From Crocosphaera subtropica ATCC 51142 (GTDB taxonomy: Bacteria > Cyanobacteriota > Cyanobacteriia > Cyanobacteriales > Microcystaceae), in NCBI RefSeq assembly GCF_000017845.1, contig NC_010547.1:270001-302000 (forward strand): DNA of 32,000 bases, read 5' to 3'. The stretch's first letter is position 1; each line of letters begins with the position of its first letter. Below, piece by piece: positions 3,000 through 31,903 of the stretch. The notes beneath the pieces were generated by a model. It was given only the letters and a program-made list of their open reading frames with translations. It had not been told where the DNA came from and searched no databases. Both the position numbers and the translations under genes were made by a program.

Positions 3000-4229
3000 T
3001 TACGCACAGATTGTTTCCAAAACCCTTAGAGTTTCTTCTTCATGAAGAGTTAAATGGAGTGGATTCATCCTTCTCAATGATTCCAGTAGTTGCTTAATTC
3101 TTCTGGTTATATTTCCCCCTAATTTCGGTTGATTCCCCGACAACAACAGCGCCGGATTATGCAACCAGCGATCGCCTATGTGGACATACACCATCGTCGT
3201 TTTCGGGTCGGTGTGTCCCAGTAGATCCTGCACTTGTTCTAAGGTTGCCCCTGCTCTCAAGGCCAGTGTTGCTGCCGTGTGTCTCAACGAGTGTGCGCTT
3301 AACTTCCTGGGTTTGGGTTTATACTTTGAGAGGTTATGCGCTTTTTTGCTCTTGCCTGTGGTGGGCAAGTTTTTCTTTTCTTGGCTCCCAGTCAGCTTTT
3401 TGGGGTTTTGAGGACGAGGTAATTCTTTCAGCCCGATCGCATTCAGATATTTGTCGACAATGCGGCGAAAGGAGCGCCGGCTCAAGGGTTTCCACATCTT
3501 TTTATTGTTACGGGCCACAGAGAGGAACAACGGGGTTGATTCGGTTATGAGTTCCCCTGCTTTTCTTCTGGCTCGCAAGTAACACCGTAATAACTTGGCT
3601 AAATCGGGGGTTAACGGCACGACCCTTGTATGGCGTTTGGATGATACTCTTAATCCCACGTTTTTCCCATCTCTGACAATATTCCCGACACAAACGCGAT
3701 GTAAATCCGCCGTGCGAAAGCCTTGCAAGACCATTGCTGAGACCAAGAAGCGATCGCGTAAAGCATGGACGGTATTCTCAGCAGGAAGGCTATCGAGTAA
3801 CCGAGACATTTCCTCACTTTGGAGGTAATTGATGGTGGCGGCTGGATCTTTAACTTCTGTGGGGGGGCGAAGGCGAAGGGCTGGATTGAAGCTGATGTAT
3901 TCGTTTTCAAGGAGAGCGTCGTAAAAGCGACGAAGGACAGCGAGTTTCAATGAAATCGTAGCGGTTTGATATTGTTGCTCTTTGACTAACCAACGACGGA
4001 AGCGTTTGAGGTTGGCGAAAGTAGCTTCAATGGGATTGAGGGTATTAGTTTGGCACCAGTGGACAAATTGCTTGAGGTGGCAAAGGTAGGTTCTTACGGT
4101 GTCGTCGGCTGCTCGTCCGTTCCCCACATCGGTGTTGAGAAAGTCATCGAAGAAGTTGAGGATTTGGGTATCTGAGATGAGGATGGTTTTGGCCGAGTGG
4201 GTAGAAACGAGGTTAGACATAGGAGCCAC
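3000..4229 (-). CDS. Tyrosine site-specific recombinase (phage-integrase family)
   Basis: It has an N-terminal core-binding (SAM-like) region and a C-terminal catalytic domain with LSAHSLRHTAATLALRAGATLEQVQDLLGHTDPKTTMVYVH (HxxR ... H ... Y). A Lys/Pro-rich insert precedes box II. Confidence 0.85.
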   Translation of the reverse strand: MAPMSNLVSTHSAKTILISDTQILNFFDDFLNTDVGNGRAADDTVRTYLCHLKQFVHWCQTNTLNPIEATFANLKRFRRWLVKEQQYQTATISLKLAVLRRFYDALLENEYISFNPALRLRPPTEVKDPAATINYLQSEEMSRLLDSLPAENTVHALRDRFLVSAMVLQGFRTADLHRVCVGNIVRDGKNVGLRVSSKRHTRVVPLTPDLAKLLRCYLRARRKAGELITESTPLFLSVARNNKKMWKPLSRRSFRRIVDKYLNAIGLKELPRPQNPKKLTGSQEKKNLPTTGKSKKAHNLSKYKPKPRKLSAHSLRHTAATLALRAGATLEQVQDLLGHTDPKTTMVYVHIGDRWLHNPALLLSGNQPKLGGNITRRIKQLLESLRRMNPLHLTLHEEETLRVLETICA

Positions 4230-23242: not shown

Positions 23243-26200
23243 ATGAATTACAAAATAGAAGAAAAACATTTCACCGAATGGGTACATGGTTCCGGTGTTG
23301 ATCCCCAAATTGTGGGATTAAATGTGCGATCGCTCTCAGGAACCACACCACATGAGCATTTACTTTACTCAGACAAATTACCCAGACGAAACGATGGGAG
23401 GTTATCAACCGGATACTTGCGTCGCTGCGAACATTGGGAATTAGGGGGGTGGTACTGTAATGGAATTGACTTGCTAACCGGTGATGAATCTTTATGGGGG
23501 TGCTTTAAGCCGAATAAGCCAAGAATAGTCACGAAAAACGATGGCTTTGACCCCGATCCCTCTGAACGTAAACAAAAACCTATCAAATATGAACATCCCC
23601 CAAAAGTTCAGACAGAAATATTTGCCCTAAGAGTGCCGAGGGCGATCGCAGAGGCCATCGCAGATCGATACAATATACCAATCCCAGAAGAAACAGAATT
23701 TTGGCAGTGGCTGATAGATCATCCTGAAATCCCCATTGTTATTACAGAAGGGGCTAAGAAAGCAGGGGCGTTATTGAGTGCCGGACGTTGTGCGATCGCC
23801 TTCCCTGGAATCTACAACGGGTATCGGCAACCCAAGGACGAAGATGGTAAGAAAACAGGGAAAGCTTACCTCATCCCTCAGTTGCAAGTGTTGGCCCAAC
23901 CCGGAAGAGAGTTTTATTTTGGGTTTGACTCTGATAATAAAATTAAGACCATTACCAATGTGAACAAGGCGATCGAGAAAACAGCTTTTCTCTTAGAAGA
24001 ACAGGGTTGTACTTGTAAGGTTATTGAGTGGTCTAATGAACACAAAGGGGTCGATGACTTAATCGTGGCTAAAGGAGTAGAAGCTTTTGATCAAGCCTAT
24101 CAAAAAGCTAAGTCTATATCTCTATGGAAAGTTAGTCGATTAAAACAGTTAACTTACTCAGTAGCTGTCGAAATAGATCCTCACCTACGTTACTTACCCA
24201 AGTTAGAAATTCCTCAAGGCGTAAAACTGATTGGACTCAAAGCCAGGAAAGGACGGGGGAAAACTTATAGCATCGAGGATGAGGTGGCACAAGCTATCCA
24301 TGATGGGAGAAGGGTGTTAGTGTTATCCCACCGACGGCAACTGGTGGCCTCGTTGTGCGATCGCTTCGGATTAGATAACGTCAACGGTTATCAGACCAGT
24401 GAAACCGGTGGGAAATTGGGTTACGGGTTATGCACCGACTCTCTACGCCAAGACTCGCAAGCTAGGTTTAGACCCCATGAGTGGATAGATGCACTGGTTA
24501 TTATTGATGAGGTCGAACAGGTGCTATGGCACACTTTGGCAGCCCATACCAAAGTTAAGGATTATCGAGTAGAAATCCTCAGAAATTTACAACAAGTTAT
24601 CGAGGTGGTTCTGGGTTCCGAACGGGGACAAGTGTTAGTAGCTGATGCAGATTTGAGTGATGTCAGTCTCGATTATATTAGAAGCTTAGTAGATAATCCC
24701 CCCGAACCCTACATCATTCACCAAGGTTACAACGCCACTACCATCACATCGGAAGAGAAATGGCAGATTTACAACTACGATCACACCAACCCGAAGCGTT
24801 TACTTGCAGACTTACTTGAACATATAAGACGAGGGGGTAAACCGTTTATCTGTGTATCGGCACAGAAAAGAAAAAGCCAATTTGGAACCATTAACCTTGA
24901 GACGATGCTCCTCGAATATTTTCCTTCTCTAAGGATACTAAGAATCGATAGTGAAACGATTACTACACCCGAACATCCGGCTTATGGTTGCATTGAACGA
25001 CTTGATGAAGTGTTGCCTCATTACGATGTAGTCCTTTCATCCCCCTCCATCGAAACCGGTGTCAGTGTTGACCATGAATACCTCAATCCAGTCACCAGTC
25101 AAACCTCGCCAGTCACCAGTAATGAGATAGAAGTTAAACCGAATCTTTCAGTGTTGCAGTTTTTTTTGATGGCAATGATAAAATCAGTTACCAGTCACCA
25201 GTTACCAGTCACCAGTGAAAGACAGTTGACAGTTACTAATGAGCAATCAGAGATTAATAATTCTCGTACTTTAGCTAAGGGTGAAGATGAGAAAACAAAA
25301 CTGGTAAGGAGTGACTGTTCATTGGTGAGTGTCAAATTAGCGATCGCTCTTTGTTGGTTATCTTTGGCCCCGGAACCGATCATAGAAGATTTACCCCCCA
25401 GTGAGTTCGTCGGGCAAAAGGATGAAGAAGCGAAACATCTGGGCCATCACCTCAAACAACTTTCGGTAGATAACTGTGGGGTTTACCATCGTCGGGTGAG
25501 TGATGCTGAAACATTAAGCGATCGCGCCTTTGAAGAATTAAAGCGTCGCCAAACTCGAAGCACTGAAGAACGACTGCAACTGCACAAGACAGAAATTTGC
25601 CGGAAATATGAAGTCAAAGACGTTTCTCCTGAATTAGTCAAATTGGATGAACAACGAGTGTACGCTCGTATGAGACTGCATTACTATGGGACTGTGGGAC
25701 GGGCTTATATGAAGCAGAAGGAGAGAAAAAGATTAGAAAAAATGTTGCAACTGGGGCAAGGTTGTTTGTTCTCTCCCGACTTTAATCGTAATAGTATTTC
25801 CGCTAAGATTTGGGTTTACGAATTCCTTGGCTTCTTTCCTTTGCTACAAAAAACCCAGGTTCACAAAGATGACCCCGATTTGCAACAATTAGCCACAGTA
25901 TCAAAAGAATTTGCCCATGATATCAAGTCTATTTTGCACGTAAGCATCAACCTTGACGACAGCCCTGTAGTGGTTTATCGCAAGTTACGCCAACCTCTGG
26001 GGCTTCCCAAGTTGATTAAGTTGGGTAGGTTTGGGTCAAGAGGCGATCGTCATTATACTTATGCGAATCCAGACCTCACTGAACGGTACGAATTGTTTGA
26101 TCGGTGGTTGGCATCGGAACAACCCTTACCTACTGAACAGCCATCACCGGTGCAATGGGCGATGAGGATGCTACACCGACTAGAATCTCCTGCACGGAGT

Positions 26201-26344
26201 TTTGTTGATAGCACTGAAGCTAACAAGTTTCTACAGGCGATCGATTCTAAATTAACTTCTGTTGTTGATGAAGTTGAAAAGGTTTGTTCTGATTTTTGCC
26301 CTCGATTTTGGGAAGCTTTTCGTTTAGCTATTTCTGAAGTCTAG
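23243..26344 (+). CDS. Plasmid replication protein of the cyanobacterial CyRepA/DUF3854 type (TOPRIM primase-like domain plus P-loop NTPase)
   Basis: TOPRIM-like motifs are IVITEGAKKAGALLSAGRCAIAFPGIYNG, FYFGFDSDNK and HKGVDDLIV. Walker A is KARKGRGKTY (about 24248-24268) and Walker B is LVIIDEVEQV. The long helical C-terminus follows. Confidence 0.75.
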   Translation: MNYKIEEKHFTEWVHGSGVDPQIVGLNVRSLSGTTPHEHLLYSDKLPRRNDGRLSTGYLRRCEHWELGGWYCNGIDLLTGDESLWGCFKPNKPRIVTKNDGFDPDPSERKQKPIKYEHPPKVQTEIFALRVPRAIAEAIADRYNIPIPEETEFWQWLIDHPEIPIVITEGAKKAGALLSAGRCAIAFPGIYNGYRQPKDEDGKKTGKAYLIPQLQVLAQPGREFYFGFDSDNKIKTITNVNKAIEKTAFLLEEQGCTCKVIEWSNEHKGVDDLIVAKGVEAFDQAYQKAKSISLWKVSRLKQLTYSVAVEIDPHLRYLPKLEIPQGVKLIGLKARKGRGKTYSIEDEVAQAIHDGRRVLVLSHRRQLVASLCDRFGLDNVNGYQTSETGGKLGYGLCTDSLRQDSQARFRPHEWIDALVIIDEVEQVLWHTLAAHTKVKDYRVEILRNLQQVIEVVLGSERGQVLVADADLSDVSLDYIRSLVDNPPEPYIIHQGYNATTITSEEKWQIYNYDHTNPKRLLADLLEHIRRGGKPFICVSAQKRKSQFGTINLETMLLEYFPSLRILRIDSETITTPEHPAYGCIERLDEVLPHYDVVLSSPSIETGVSVDHEYLNPVTSQTSPVTSNEIEVKPNLSVLQFFLMAMIKSVTSHQLPVTSERQLTVTNEQSEINNSRTLAKGEDEKTKLVRSDCSLVSVKLAIALCWLSLAPEPIIEDLPPSEFVGQKDEEAKHLGHHLKQLSVDNCGVYHRRVSDAETLSDRAFEELKRRQTRSTEERLQLHKTEICRKYEVKDVSPELVKLDEQRVYARMRLHYYGTVGRAYMKQKERKRLEKMLQLGQGCLFSPDFNRNSISAKIWVYEFLGFFPLLQKTQVHKDDPDLQQLATVSKEFAHDIKSILHVSINLDDSPVVVYRKLRQPLGLPKLIKLGRFGSRGDRHYTYANPDLTERYELFDRWLASEQPLPTEQPSPVQWAMRMLHRLESPARSFVDSTEANKFLQAIDSKLTSVVDEVEKVCSDFCPRFWEAFRLAISEV
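25185..25217 (+). repeat. Heptanucleotide (STRR-like) tandem repeat CAGTNAC inside the rep ORF
   Basis: The sequence cagttac cagtcac cagttac cagtcac cagtg runs from 25185 to 25217. Related copies ccagtcaccagt lie at 25088-25099 and 25109-25120, and cagttgacagttac at about 25223-25236. Confidence 0.8.
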
Positions 26345-27412: not shown

Positions 27413-28708
27413 TTACCCATCGGATAACTCCTCGATAACAAAATTTTCTAAATAAGCGATCGCCTTCAATGAAGCATTAGCTTTAGCATCTTTTTTAGAA
27501 GTTTCAATCGCTTTGGTTTCAATCAAAGGTTCATCCAACCACTCGATTCGACAACAACAAAGCCAATCATTGCTTACTTGATGGTAAAAGTATTCAGGTC
27601 GTTTCATTTTCAGTTTCTGCAATGCTTCATGTAAATAACCGATAGGGGATTCATGGGCCTCTGTTGGTATTTCTGAAAGGTCGATTTCGTCTTCTGTTTC
27701 AGGGATAAATTCATCAGTTACCACCGTCTGGGCTATGTTTGTCTCTGAATGAATATCCTGCAAAGGACTTTGATCAATGAATTCAGGTGGCACTAAACTC
27801 TGATCTAACACCCCTTCTATCAATAAGTAGTTAGCCTGATGTTTGGCGGCTTGTTTATTACTAGCAATGCCAGGAATGGCTGTGGTTTCTCCTTCTAAGA
27901 TAGACCAAAAAGCAAACTTCCCTGATGCCGTTGTCTTTTCGATGTATTCTACGGTTGTTTGATTCGTCGTCCCTGCTATTTGGATAATTTGAGTGGCTTC
28001 TACCTGTTTTTCTTCTAAATAATCTAATATCGTGTCTTTGATTAATTCTTTCGTTTCTGGGTCATTGTACTCCCCAAAGATTAGATAGTATAAATCTACT
28101 GGTTTGATATTACCGTCTTCTATTCGAGAGATGGCTTCGGGTACAATTTTGTCTAACTTTGATACCCTAAGACTATCTTTAACAATTTGGGAAAATTCTT
28201 TATCCGAAAGATTCTCTATCTTGCCCTTATCCCTTAATATGTGTACGGTTTGATTGAGGCGTTTCTCACGGAAATGTTCGTCTCGTTGTTCTTTGACTTG
28301 GGTGCGTTTGCTATTGATGTGGTTAGCGATCGCTTGTAGTTCTTCTAGGGTGTAAGGAGATTCCTTCCCTTCTATGAAAACTGCTTTGAGAATACGGTGG
28401 TTAACGTAGTCAGCTACCCTGCGAATGGGGGAAGTAAAGTGAGTATAGGCTGGTAAAGCTAGGGCAAAGTGACCAATAACTGCCGGAGAGTAAGTAGCAG
28501 GATTTAACCAACTTTGCAACTTCTGTCTCACCAATTCGGGTAATCCGAGTGTCGTCAGAGTTTCTATCAACTCTTTGCTTTTAGGGGCGATCGCACTTGC
28601 AGTATGGTTCCGGTAGAGTATGGGTAAACGATGCTTCTCGGCTAAACTGGCCACTGCGGTATTAGCCAGGAGCATAAATTCTTGAATGATTTGCTGTGAG
28701 TCACGAAC
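27413..28708 (-). pseudogene. RNB-family (RNase II/R-like) exoribonuclease, 3' fragment, separated from its 5' part by the IscB element
   Basis: The frame is open upstream of the listed Met and reads VRDSQQIIQEFMLLANTAVA. This is followed by HFALALPAYTHFTSPIRRVADYVNHRIL, the RNB C-terminal motifs. The C-terminal region has two dsRBD-like modules, one of which is PIGYLHEALQKL...TSKKDAKANASLKAIAYL. Confidence 0.85.
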
Positions 28709-28942
28709 CCACCACTAATCCAGTAGGTATAGTGGGGGCTTGAAAAGCCCAAGACGTGACCAGACTAAGGTTCTAGAAACCTACGTTATTTGAGTCAAGA
28801 CACCTTGAGATGCGTGCCAGTCTCACGCTCTGTCGCTCATCTTTAAACATCCCTAAACGGGTTAAGGAAGTGAGATGGGCCTAACAAGCTCAAATAACAT
28901 TGTCGAGGCAAACTTTACCCTAGAAATAGGAGATTAAAACTA
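28693..28942 (+). ncRNA. Candidate IscB omega RNA (HEARO-type): about 16-nt flank-derived guide plus about 234-nt scaffold
   Basis: This non-coding leader lies between the element boundary (about 28709) and the iscB ATG. The position and size are as expected for an IscB omega RNA. The stems are ccacta/tagtgg (28712-28717/28730-28735), gggctt/aagccc (28736-28741/28745-28750), aggtt/aacct (28768-28772/28778-28782), tcaag/cttga (28794-28798/28804-28808) and a possible long-range ctcac/gtgag. It is GC-richer than typical intergenic DNA in this window. Confidence 0.65.
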
Positions 28943-30289
28943 ATGTTCGTATTCGTATTGTCAAAAGACAAGCGACCACTTAGCCCCTGCCATCAGGCGA
29001 GAGCTAGAAAACTGCTCAAAGAAGGGAAAGCAGCCGTATATCGAAAATACCCCTTCACTATCATCCTCAAAGAAGAGGTGAACCCTAGCAAACCTCAACC
29101 TTGCCGAATTAAGCTTGATCCTGGCGCAAAAGTAACCGGTATTGCCTTAATTCAAGGGGATAGGATGATCTTTGGTGCTGAACTTGAACATAGAGGATTT
29201 AGAATTAAAGACTCACTTGAGTCAAGAAGACAGTTAAGAAGGGGTCGTAGGGGAAGGAAAACCCGCTACCGAAAACCTCGCTTCCTAAATCGGACACGGC
29301 CTAAAGGTTGGCTTCCTCCGTCCTTACAAAGCCGCGTCGAGAACATTAATACTTGGGTTAATCGGTTGAGAAAACTCTGTCCAGTAGACTCGATTAGTGT
29401 TGAACTTGTTCGGTTTGACACTCAGCAGCTTGAAAATCCTGAAATCTCAGGAGTCGAGTACCAGCAAGGAACTCTTTGCGGGTACGAGGTGCGAGAGTAC
29501 CTGCTAGAAAAGTATCATCGGACTTGTCAGTATTGTGGGGCTAAAGAGGTTCCCTTTGAGATAGAGCATATTGTACCTAAATCAAAGGGGGGAAGCGATC
29601 GCGTTTCTAATCTCACTCTAAGTTGCCACAAATGCAACCAGAAGAAAGGAAACCGGTCAGTTGAGGAGTTCCTTAAGGGTAAGCCTGAAGTGCTGAAACG
29701 AGTTAAAGCTAATGCCAAAAAGCCCCTGAGAGATGCTGCTGCGGTGAACGCTGCTCGGTGGGCAGTCTTTAACCGATTAAAGGCTAGTGGACTAGAGGTA
29801 GAGGCTGGTTCAGGAGGACTAACTAAGTTTAATCGAACCAAGCACGAACTCCCTAAGACGCACTGGCTAGATGCAGCTTGTGTGGGCAAATCAACACCAA
29901 GCAAATTACGAATGCTGGTACAGAAGCCACTTAAAATTAAAGCCACTGGTCACGGCACAAGGCAAATGTGCCGCACCAACAAGTATGGGTTCCCAACTCG
30001 TTATGTCCCGCACAAAAAAGATGTTAAAGGATTTCAAACCGGTGACATTGTTAAGGCTGTAGTTACTAAGGGAAAGAAGACCGGCATTTATGTTGGGAGG
30101 GTAGCCGTACGCTCGACTGGGAGTTTTAACATTTCGACTGCAAAAGGCGTAATCCAGGGCATTAATCACAAATATTGCCGACAAATTCACAAGAAGGATG
30201 GTTACTCTTATGCCACATAGCTACTGCCCACCTTTTCCTCTCATCGCTAACCTTTTCGGTATAGCGAGAGTCTCCAAGGAGGAGGAAAG
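28709..30289 (+). mobile_element. IS200/IS605-superfamily non-autonomous element carrying omega RNA and iscB (no tnpA), inserted in the RNB gene
   Basis: The RNB reading frame stops being RNB-like at 28708/28709 and at 30289/30290. Removing 1581 nt (3 x 527) rejoins ...TTPMYH to VRDSQQIIQEFMLLAN in frame. A subterminal hairpin lies in the 69-nt right end (ctctc..cgcta/tagcgagag, about 30238-30270). The boundaries are good to within a few nt. Confidence 0.75.
28943..30220 (+). CDS. iscB: IscB RNA-guided endonuclease (PLMP domain, split RuvC, HNH insert)
   Basis: The N-terminus is MFVFVLSKDKRPLSPCHQARARKLLKEGKAAVYRKYPFTI (PLMP-type). RuvC-I is IKLDPGAKVTGIAL (D59). The Arg-rich bridge helix is RRQLRRGRRGRKTRYRKPRF. 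RuvC-II is ISVELVRFD (E154). The HNH domain is CQYCG...EIEHIVPKSKGGSDRVSNLTLSCHKCNQKKGN (H209). RuvC-III is HWLDAAC (H307, D310). An AGGAG lies 10 nt upstream of the ATG. Confidence 0.92.
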   Translation: MFVFVLSKDKRPLSPCHQARARKLLKEGKAAVYRKYPFTIILKEEVNPSKPQPCRIKLDPGAKVTGIALIQGDRMIFGAELEHRGFRIKDSLESRRQLRRGRRGRKTRYRKPRFLNRTRPKGWLPPSLQSRVENINTWVNRLRKLCPVDSISVELVRFDTQQLENPEISGVEYQQGTLCGYEVREYLLEKYHRTCQYCGAKEVPFEIEHIVPKSKGGSDRVSNLTLSCHKCNQKKGNRSVEEFLKGKPEVLKRVKANAKKPLRDAAAVNAARWAVFNRLKASGLEVEAGSGGLTKFNRTKHELPKTHWLDAACVGKSTPSKLRMLVQKPLKIKATGHGTRQMCRTNKYGFPTRYVPHKKDVKGFQTGDIVKAVVTKGKKTGIYVGRVAVRSTGSFNISTAKGVIQGINHKYCRQIHKKDGYSYAT

Positions 30290-30904
30290 ATGATACATTG
30301 GGGTGGTGAGGATACGCCCCTCTTCATCTAAGTTGACCCCACCGACACGACTTAAACCAATAGCACCGACATCTTGGCGTTTCCAAGCTAATTTTTGCGC
30401 CCAGAGTTCACAATAACGTAGCATTTGGAAAAATGGCGATGAAGGGTCATGAAGAGTAGCATCAGCCGCAGAGTAAGAAAAGCGTTGTAAACTGGTTAAA
30501 TGCGCTAAATGGAGGGAAGTATTTTTGATATTAGCTGATTCATCGAGAGTGATGCGAATTGTCACCGTCAAACGTAATTTATCTTCGAGTAGAGACAGTT
30601 TATCCTCAGAAAGTTCATGGGGAAACATGGGTTTATTCTTCGTGGCCAAGTAGCGAGTTTCCACCTGTGAGAGTGCATTGGCTTCTAAGGAGGAACCTGG
30701 TTGGATTATGGCCGACACATCCGAGATATGCACGGATACCACAGCCCCTGATTGCTTGGGTTCTATCCATAAAGCGTCATCGAGGTCTTTTGACGTTTCG
30801 CCGTCAATCGTAAAACCGAGTACCGCCTCTCGATTAGTTAGGGATATATTATTATCTAGTAATTGTTCTATTTCGCTTCGTATAATTGGTAATGCTTTAG
30901 CCAC
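30290..30904 (-). pseudogene. RNB-family exoribonuclease, 5' fragment (GTG start), interrupted by the IscB element
   Basis: FTIDGETSKDLDDALWIEPKQSGAVVSVHISDVSAII and MFPHELSEDKLSLLEDKLRLTVTI are the N-terminal RNB motifs. After ...TTPMYH the ORF runs 22 codons into element sequence and stops at 30221-30223. No cold-shock/OB domains precede the RNB domain. Confidence 0.85.
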
Positions 30905-31471: not shown

Positions 31472-31903
31472 TTATTCTTTCAAGTTATTTCTGAATAATT
31501 CCAAAAATTGACTAATAGTTAAAATTGGTATTTTTTCAAATTCTTTTAAAACTAATAAGTCTTTATCTCCAGATATAATTACGTCCACAGGAATTGTTAC
31601 GGCCGTTTCTAAGACAATTTTATCTTGAGGATCTCGTAAGTCGGAAATAGAAGATAAGGGCTTTGGTTGACATAGTAAGGTGATTTTTCTGACTTCTTCT
31701 AATATCTCATCTCTAGTAATTTCTAATTGTGTCAACCTCCGTTCAAGCTTAGCATATTTTAAAGTTTTTTCTAGCTCATCTAATAAAGGAGACGAAATAT
31801 AAATAACAATTTTATTTTGTTGTGCTAACAGAATAATATCTCTGGCTTGTCCACCCCAAAGTAATCCAGAGATCCATATATTAGTATCAAGTAAAACTTT
31901 CAT
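31472..31903 (-). CDS. PIN-domain toxin (PIN_3 / TIGR00305-like)
   Basis: MKVLLDTNIWISGLLWGG ... DPQDKIVLETAV ... VIISGDKDLL carries the conserved acidic residues of PIN nucleases. Its ATG overlaps the upstream ORF stop as ATGA. Confidence 0.85.
   Translation of the reverse strand: MKVLLDTNIWISGLLWGGQARDIILLAQQNKIVIYISSPLLDELEKTLKYAKLERRLTQLEITRDEILEEVRKITLLCQPKPLSSISDLRDPQDKIVLETAVTIPVDVIISGDKDLLVLKEFEKIPILTISQFLELFRNNLKE

Follow-up and report, generated by a model that had tools for sequence, protein, structure and literature searches.

A 1,590-bp element at positions 28700 to 30289 (plus strand) of the DNA analysed here, a 32,000-nt stretch of the Crocosphaera subtropica ATCC 51142 genome (contig NC_010547.1, positions 270,001 to 302,000; called the window below), is very probably a non-autonomous mobile element of the IS200/IS605 type (ISC/HEARO), which carries an omega RNA and a gene for the RNA-guided endonuclease IscB and has inserted into a gene for an RNB-dsRBD ribonuclease. 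The same site is empty in C. chwakensis, and the two species together make a pair of filled and empty sites that is exact to the base, such that the ends of the element, its guide and its target-adjacent motif (TAM) can be read without experiments.

The ribonuclease gene lies on the minus strand and is present as two pieces, whose limits were set by homolog alignment. The N-terminal part (30290–30904) matches positions 9–184 of the 326 in the Pfam RNB model and ends with ...TTPMYH, while the C-terminal part (27413–28699) resumes with SQQIIQEFM and matches RNB positions 204–324, together with dsrm. In GenBank, 27413–28675 is annotated as a separate 420-aa exoribonuclease II (P0022, 100% identical). 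The RNB frame that opens at 30904 runs to ...LDEEGRILTTPMYH at 30290, continues for 22 codons into foreign sequence and there meets a stop. Between the two pieces, on the plus strand, lies the open reading frame (ORF) 28943–30220, which encodes IscB. A first-pass annotation, made from the sequence alone, had proposed that an IscB insertion splits a minus-strand RNB gene, and the ORF reading and the Pfam matches on both RNB pieces bear this out. The split falls between the His and Ser codons of a conserved motif, in which ...YH is followed by SQQIIQEFM. When the element is removed, the repaired RNB ORF has 633 aa and no internal stops, which is the length of most homologs.

The exact boundaries are of some importance, because the guide is read from the sequence next to them. 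The first-pass annotation had placed the insertion at 28709–30289 (1,581 nt), which leaves the residues VRD in the RNB protein, gives the guide as GCTGTGAGTCACGAAC and implies an intact allele with GTTCGTGAC at the junction position. Deletion of this interval also leaves an open RNB frame, and the resulting spacing looks acceptable beside that of E. coli RNase R. The protein reconstructed in this way was used as the query for a homolog search, and the best 69 hits were aligned. More than 60 intact homologs span the junction; all of them read ...(L/M)YH followed directly by SQQIIQEFM, and none has VRD. Two intact orthologs were available as DNA, from C. chwakensis CCY0110 (L081) and from a metagenome-assembled genome (MAG; L082). 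The window without 28700–30289 aligns to both of them without a gap, and in both CAT is joined directly to TCA. On the RNB-sense strand the junction, ...CCAATGTATCAT joined to TCACAGCAAATC..., is identical in C. chwakensis CCY0110, and on the iscB-sense strand the empty site of C. chwakensis, aaattcttgaatgatttgctgtga joined to ATGATACATTGG, matches the reconstruction at all of 36 nt, 24 to the left of the junction and 12 to its right. Because the homologs lack VRD and the empty-site DNA aligns without gaps, the element is taken as 28700–30289.

The alignment of intact orthologs across the junction was a check that the first-pass annotation had itself suggested, adding that a different junction in intact homologs would speak against it, which is what the homologs show. 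Its right-hand junction, between 30289 and 30290, stands when compared with the intact orthologs and with a second copy of the element described below. Its left junction, between 28708 and 28709, is wrong by 9 nt and lies between 28699 and 28700, so that the boundary and the guide shift together and the insertion measures 1,590 nt rather than 1,581 nt. The length is still a multiple of three (3 x 530), as had been noted earlier, although this has a prior of one in three and no visible consequence, since the RNB frame within the insert is full of stops. A shift of one base (28701–30290) was also considered; it too encodes YHSQ, but it needs CAC for His, and both intact orthologs have CAT. With the boundaries corrected, the flanks rejoin exactly as in the intact ortholog, with zero bases gained or lost. 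The insertion is thus scarless and has no target-site duplication.

Repeats often mis-join assemblies, and a repeat misassembled into the RNB gene would give a similar picture; a related element is carried by two metagenome contigs, L089 and L090, and both of them break off precisely at ...ATGA. Here, however, the finished replicon agrees with independent Logan assemblies of separate sequencing runs, one of which (L083) has the same gene order around the insertion, and the single-copy halves of the RNB gene on the two flanks fit to the base. We attach virtually no probability to an assembly artefact. Three Logan contigs carry the exact IscB protein.

The product of iscB (28943–30220, plus strand) has 425 aa and shows the PLMP/RRXRR, split RuvC and HNH regions. 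Pfam matches are to PF14239 RRXRR (263.8 bits, residues 3–176) and PF01844 HNH (residues 195–238), and the NCBIfam equivalog NF040563 (guided_IscB, 'RNA-guided endonuclease IscB') is matched with 483.6 bits against a cut-off of 175. Matches to IscB in the PDB span E values of 2e-47 to 1e-27, among them TbaIscB (2.3e-47) and OgeuIscB (1.6e-29). Besides the domain set, the locus has an omega RNA upstream on the same strand, and the arrangement of a guide derived from the flank and a TAM on the 3′ side. The element is an ordinary addition to the known IscB/omega-RNA family, and relatives in this genome are already annotated as IscB. RNA-guided cleavage of double-stranded DNA by this IscB would be in keeping with its family, and is suggested indirectly by the purifying selection on its gene that is described below.

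An HNH protein in an insertion whose length is a multiple of three, sited in a highly conserved motif of the kind that homing introns and inteins typically occupy, could also be thought to represent a group I or group II intron with an HNH homing endonuclease, or an intein, the in-frame length then serving to preserve RNB function. The ORF and the structured RNA are nevertheless on the strand opposite to RNB, and the RNB frame meets many stops inside the insert. Rfam, used at gathering thresholds, finds no intron family in the window and has HEARO as its sole match. The protein is an IscB equivalog, and has no reverse transcriptase and no LAGLIDADG or intein blocks. In addition, the ORF that the element interrupts in C. 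chwakensis is unrelated to RNB, and there the element lies in the sense orientation. The chance of an intron or intein is consequently negligible in our view.

The omega-RNA scaffold is matched by the Rfam family RF02033 (HEARO) at 28700–28918 on the plus strand, over model positions 1–211 of 211, with 156.4 bits in cmscan (E 2.3e-33; gathering score 83). The match ends 24 nt 5′ of the iscB ATG on the same strand, and the omega RNA probably extends beyond 28918 up to the iscB start at 28943. Model position 1 falls at 28700. The first 9 nt of the element, GTCACGAAC, are the same as HEARO positions 1–9, which belong to the P1 stem; in the model GUCACG (28700–28705) pairs with CGUGAC (28753–28758) as the outer stem. 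GTCACGAAC also opens the second copy, at an unrelated locus in C. chwakensis. In seven further element families the left end was set independently of the RNA model, from where the similarity between copies at different loci breaks off. In eight cases, namely the window and these seven families, HEARO position 1 falls on a left end determined without it, to within 3 nt in L031. All 20 elements examined start with GTCA-N3-4-ACC, and their left flanks are unrelated to one another. An insertion that begins at 28709 would have to leave GTCACGAAC outside the element in spite of all this, and it is so improbable that we do not consider it further. The coincidence of HEARO position 1 with the transposon end also provides a practical rule for extracting native guides.

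Since the first 9 nt of the region belong to the scaffold, the guide is read from 28684–28699 (plus strand). This 16-nt flank, GAATGATTTGCTGTGA, lies directly 5′ of the scaffold, is antisense to RNB and is the predicted guide at the corrected boundary; in OgeuIscB the 5′ guide has 16–17 nt (PMC9640706). In the 16-nt guide put forward earlier, gctgtgagtcacgaac, only the first 7 nt are flank, while the last 9 nt (GTCACGAAC) are element and form part of HEARO P1. The predicted guide occurs once in the window, allowing up to three mismatches. With the element removed, the iscB-sense strand has GAATGATTTGCTGTGA followed by ATGATA. The match of the guide to the empty site is true by construction, given that the guide would be transcribed from the flank; what is informative is that the junction is scarless and that ATGA recurs behind independent copies.

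The ends of the element have the form expected for IS200/IS605 elements, which we describe in the transposase sense as left end (LE) and right end (RE). The RE subterminal hairpin (28708–28738, minus strand) reads CCC-CCACTA-(12-nt loop)-TAGTGG-T-GGG, and the LE subterminal hairpin (30240–30270, minus strand) reads CTC-TCGCTA-(12-nt loop)-TAGCGA-T-GAG. They share a common design, a stem of 3 + 6 bp with a bulged T and a 12-nt loop. Folded as single-stranded DNA, they have energies of −14.7 kcal/mol (z −4.25) for RE and −12.7 kcal/mol (z −2.85) for LE, and in neither case was any of 200 shuffles as good. From the RE hairpin to the end of the element there are 8 nt, TTCGTGAC (28707–28700), and from the LE hairpin to the other end there is a terminal spacer of 19 nt, TCTCCAAGGAGGAGGAAAG (30271–30289, plus strand), which contains a Shine–Dalgarno-like GGAGG. 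The spacer is identical in the second copy, and similar in L003, L005, L018, L022, and L074. Terminal inverted repeats are absent, since GTCACGAACC at one terminus and CTTTCCTCCT at the other are not related by inversion. The locus therefore has the subterminal imperfect palindromes of IS200/IS605, no duplication, and insertion 3′ of a conserved TCAT target that abuts LE.

This target is also the TAM. It occupies 30290–30295 on the plus strand, just outside the element, and reads ATGATA with an ATGA core (TATCAT on the RNB-sense strand). ATGATA is present once in the intact orthologous site. The first-pass annotation had named ATGATA as the motif, on the ground that it fits the NWRRNA of OgeuIscB, which is the TAM given in PMC12660989. 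In GstIscB the TAM is TTCAT 5′ of the left end of the insertion sequence, i.e., ATGAA in the iscB sense, and single changes in it abolished cleavage (Meers et al. preprint 10.1101/2023.03.14.532601). The window ATGAT shares four of these five bases, and the ATGAA(A) of the second copy contains them all. IsrB orthologs, one of them from Crocosphaera watsonii, use NTG or NTGA (PMC9581776).

A comparison of the flanks of other copies, which had also been suggested as a check, supports the assignment. The second copy is followed by ATGAAA, and both close copies have TCAT immediately before the element in the transposase sense. Only two close copies were found in the databases searched, so that a TAM logo for the exact element rests on two sites, and it was therefore extended with related families. 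In other families, the copies remain homologous up to and including a terminal ATGA, GTGA, or ATAA, but not beyond it. Related termini were collected by a rule that is blind to downstream genes (hairpin, then G-TYTCC, then 14–28 nt), and the motif was present in 51 loci. ATGA stands at the expected distance in 35 non-duplicate sites, against one locus in a control window 32–46 nt out. Of these 35 sites, 24 have A at position 5 of the TAM and 18 have A at position 6. The flanks thus share ATGA rather than carrying unrelated motifs. The related-element contigs L089 and L090 both end exactly at ...TTTTTTATGA; breaks at the element end plus TAM are as expected for a multi-copy repeat that shares a TAM.

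The second, or sister, copy (L001:1258–2847, in C. chwakensis) is 96.4% identical to the window copy and lies at a different locus. It begins with GTCACGAACC and ends with GGAGGAGGAAAG, as does the window copy. It also interrupts an ORF, and excision of L001:1258–2847 restores an ORF of about 110 aa (MSQTQEKK...GMI joined to NENQKW...TVSNK; region L001:1125–3047), which has the same orientation as iscB and is unrelated to RNB. The two copies differ at 58 positions, of which 55 are in iscB (48 of them synonymous), 2 are in the 243-nt omega-RNA region and 1 is in the 69-nt LE. For iscB the proportion of synonymous sites that differ (pS) is 0.162 and that of nonsynonymous sites (pN) is 0.007, giving a pN/pS of 0.044. 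The gene is thus under strong purifying selection, and the omega RNA and the transposon end are constrained more than tenfold beyond synonymous sites. The second copy in this way makes selection directly visible in the protein, the RNA and the transposon end.

The same comparison bears on the age of the insertion. The element copies have a pS of 0.16, while the RNB orthologs of the two host species have one of about 0.40. The divergence of the hosts thus predates that of the element copies, which sit at different sites, and the element has therefore moved or been transferred recently. The interrupted RNB copy, compared with the C. chwakensis ortholog (pS about 0.40), has a pN/pS of 0.10–0.15 and no stops or frameshifts, and so shows no decay. 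Given this lack of decay and the relative youth of the element copies, the knockout of RNB is considered to be recent.

From these observations a mechanism can be proposed. The element would have entered the RNB-dsRBD gene as a single strand, in 'peel-and-paste' fashion, with a Y1 TnpA presumably supplied in trans. It would have inserted directly 3′ of (A/T)TCAT, represented at the window site by (A)TCAT on the RNB-sense strand, with no duplication and with inactivation of RNB. Transcription entering from the left flank would then give rise to an omega RNA that begins with about 16 nt of RNB antisense sequence, GAATGATTTGCTGTGA (28684–28699). The complex of IscB and omega RNA is predicted to cut DNA in which the guide sequence is followed by ATGA(T/A)A. 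Its targets would be the donor joint after excision and any uninterrupted RNB allele, e.g., that of C. chwakensis, and recombination repair from the occupied copy could then restore or spread the element. The occupied locus would itself be immune, since there the guide match is followed by GTCACG, not ATGA. Guide transcription, nuclease activity, the source of TnpA and homing itself are all presumed in this scheme from the sequence. A retention or homing model for IscB elements of IS200/IS605 type has been published (Meers et al. preprint 10.1101/2023.03.14.532601), and the first-pass annotation had read the locus in its terms. The arrangement that it recognised, with a flank guide and a 3′ TAM that together make up the empty allele, does match the published model; the particular guide that it gave does not survive.

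A number of observations weigh against this interpretation. The element has a single ORF, and Pfam detects no Y1 HUH TnpA (PF01797 type) in it or among the window ORFs of at least 100 aa; a crude motif scan likewise finds no ORF with HUH and Y motifs in the window or in the fetched loci. The element is classed as non-autonomous because no tnpA was found, which agrees with surveys reporting few HEARO/IscB genes close to TnpA (PMC9755519), and its mobility at the present day is only presumptive. At the level of sequence, every feature of IscB, HEARO, and IS200/IS605 architecture that was tested is in place apart from the possession of TnpA. Position 5 of the TAM is T in the window, where it is A in 24 of 35 relatives and in GstIscB, and ATGAT may therefore be a weak TAM. 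Promoter-like sites upstream of the guide are at or below shuffle expectation and none is convincing, and iscB is antisense to the gene that it interrupts, when published IscB elements tend to share orientation with the upstream gene (Meers et al. preprint 10.1101/2023.03.14.532601). Expression of the omega RNA at this locus may consequently be poor. To these can be added the small number of close copies, noted above. A protein search gives a single close IscB relative at 99%, with the next at 76% or less, and the 22-nt left-end terminus has no exact match in JGI metagenome contigs.

Several of these points are what would be seen if the element were a stranded relic, with its sequence intact but immobile or silent, its guide unexpressed, and the whole passively carried as a recent knockout. 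This is the one live rival to a mobile, guide-expressing element, and we regard it as unlikely. It is favoured by the absence of tnpA from the window ORFs of at least 100 aa, by the lack of a promoter signal upstream and the antisense placement, and by the finding of the exact IscB at one locus only, as well as by the surveys in which few HEARO/IscB genes have a TnpA nearby (PMC9755519). What it explains less well is the pN/pS of 0.044 in iscB and the still stronger conservation of the omega RNA and LE, the presence of copies at different loci that are less diverged than host genes and so point to recent movement, and RNB fragments without decay (pN/pS 0.10–0.15). These last observations do not prove activity today.

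The closest known system is ISGst5 of Geobacillus stearothermophilus (Meers et al. 2023), in which the guide is also taken from the RE flank, the TAM also abuts the left end, the insertion is also scarless and HEARO is bounded by the right end, as in the window element. Unlike ISGst5, the window element is in a cyanobacterium, has no cognate TnpA identified, lies inside a gene in antisense orientation, and has T at TAM position 5. It is known here from sequence alone, whereas GstIscB was tested experimentally. OgeuIscB, from a human gut metagenome (7UTN, 7XHT, 8CSZ), has the same domain set, a 5′ guide of about 16–17 nt and a TAM located 3′ on the non-target strand (PMC9640706). It is longer (496 aa, compared with 425 aa for the window IscB), and the relatives studied here conserve ATGA at positions 1–4 rather than the purine pair and the A at position 6.

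HEARO itself (RF02033) is matched over its full length, with an HNH ORF directly downstream and no structural difference. HEARO elements are abundant in cyanobacteria such as Arthrospira, and the RNA family is said to be the one described by Weinberg et al. in 2009. The resemblance to IS608 of Helicobacter pylori lies in the subterminal imperfect hairpins with an unpaired T and in insertion 3′ of a short sequence without duplication. In IS608 the left cleavage site is 19 nt 5′ of the hairpin foot, a distance equal to the length of the window spacer; between the RE hairpin and the end there are 10 nt in IS608 and 8 nt in the window element. IS608 differs in having tnpA and tnpB instead of iscB, and its target is TTAC, compared with TCAT. 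For the pairing between a 'DNA guide' and the TAM described at the left end of IS608, no convincing assignment could be made by eye in the window element.

The related elements show a further regularity, in that the TAM ATG usually serves as start codon for a downstream host gene of the same orientation. It opens an ORF of at least 60 codons in 27 of the 35 related sites, whereas 25% of control ATGAs from these flanks do so (example loci, among L002–L094, are L025:2854, L026:2854, L088:2056, and L094:2060). Independent gene calls begin at the TAM ATG in L088 and L094, and N-terminal Pfam domains (DAO, GFO_IDH_MocA, TPS) begin at residues 2–37 of these ORFs. GGAG, GAGG, or AGGA occurs 4–15 nt before the ATG in 16 of 31 termini (shuffle mean 1.8). 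Because the sites are linked by phylogeny, with two orthologous pairs among them, these counts overstate independence. The window LE has GGAGG 7–10 nt before the TAM ATG, as ...AAGGAGGAGGAAAG followed by ATG, with equivalents in L001, L003, L005, L018, L022, and L074, among others. This GGAGG could be a replacement ribosome-binding site or a feature recognised by the transposase.

It may be that this lineage is adapted to sit between the ribosome-binding region and the start codon of a host gene, with the ATGA of the TAM comprising the start codon and the first base of codon 2, and with LE often supplying the Shine–Dalgarno sequence. We offer this tentatively, our own opinion leaning slightly towards doubt. 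The window copy and the sister copy do not follow the start-codon pattern. If the idea is right, insertion would do almost no harm, and the host 5′ untranslated region would serve as the omega-RNA guide; the window copy, inside RNB and antisense, would then be off-type and probably a recent deleterious insertion. If upheld genome-wide, the pattern would bear on how such elements limit damage and how their guide RNAs are transcribed. The coincidence of TAM and start codon is not mentioned in the IscB literature examined, which excluded the two founding papers.

C. subtropica has a second, intact RNB-dsRBD paralog, which is about 65% identical (P0025; L084). Loss of the window copy may be tolerated thanks to this paralog. 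The paralog, on the main chromosome, was considered as a possible self-target, as it has the TAM ATGATA; it has four mismatches to the guide, which lie 3, 6, 12, and 15 positions from the TAM. OgeuIscB no longer cleaves when there are mismatches at positions 1–14 (PMC9640706), and the paralog is probably not a target of the guide.

More distant IscB homologs, about 60% identical, are found in Hormoscilla MAGs (L027–L032, L042, L051, L058) within a repeat of about 1.55 kb whose ends, CTYTTGCATAAAATCCGGTAATTTC ... AAATTACCAGTTTTTTAGTATGCTG, are different. In places these two ends resemble inverted copies of one another, and there is no ATGA after the element. In L027 there is no HEARO match at the gathering score, and a group II intron domain is matched nearby (L027:53–129).

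The RNB-dsRBD gene of the window sits among genes of mobile or defence type, with a 1,033-aa DUF3854 protein (23243–26344, plus strand) on one side and a PIN-domain protein (31472–31903, minus strand) on the other. The neighbourhood of the ortholog in L082 contains GIY-YIG, PhdYeFM, and PIN genes. The window also holds, further upstream, a tyrosine integrase (3000–4229), HicB, CHAT/CHASE2, and two-partner-secretion genes.

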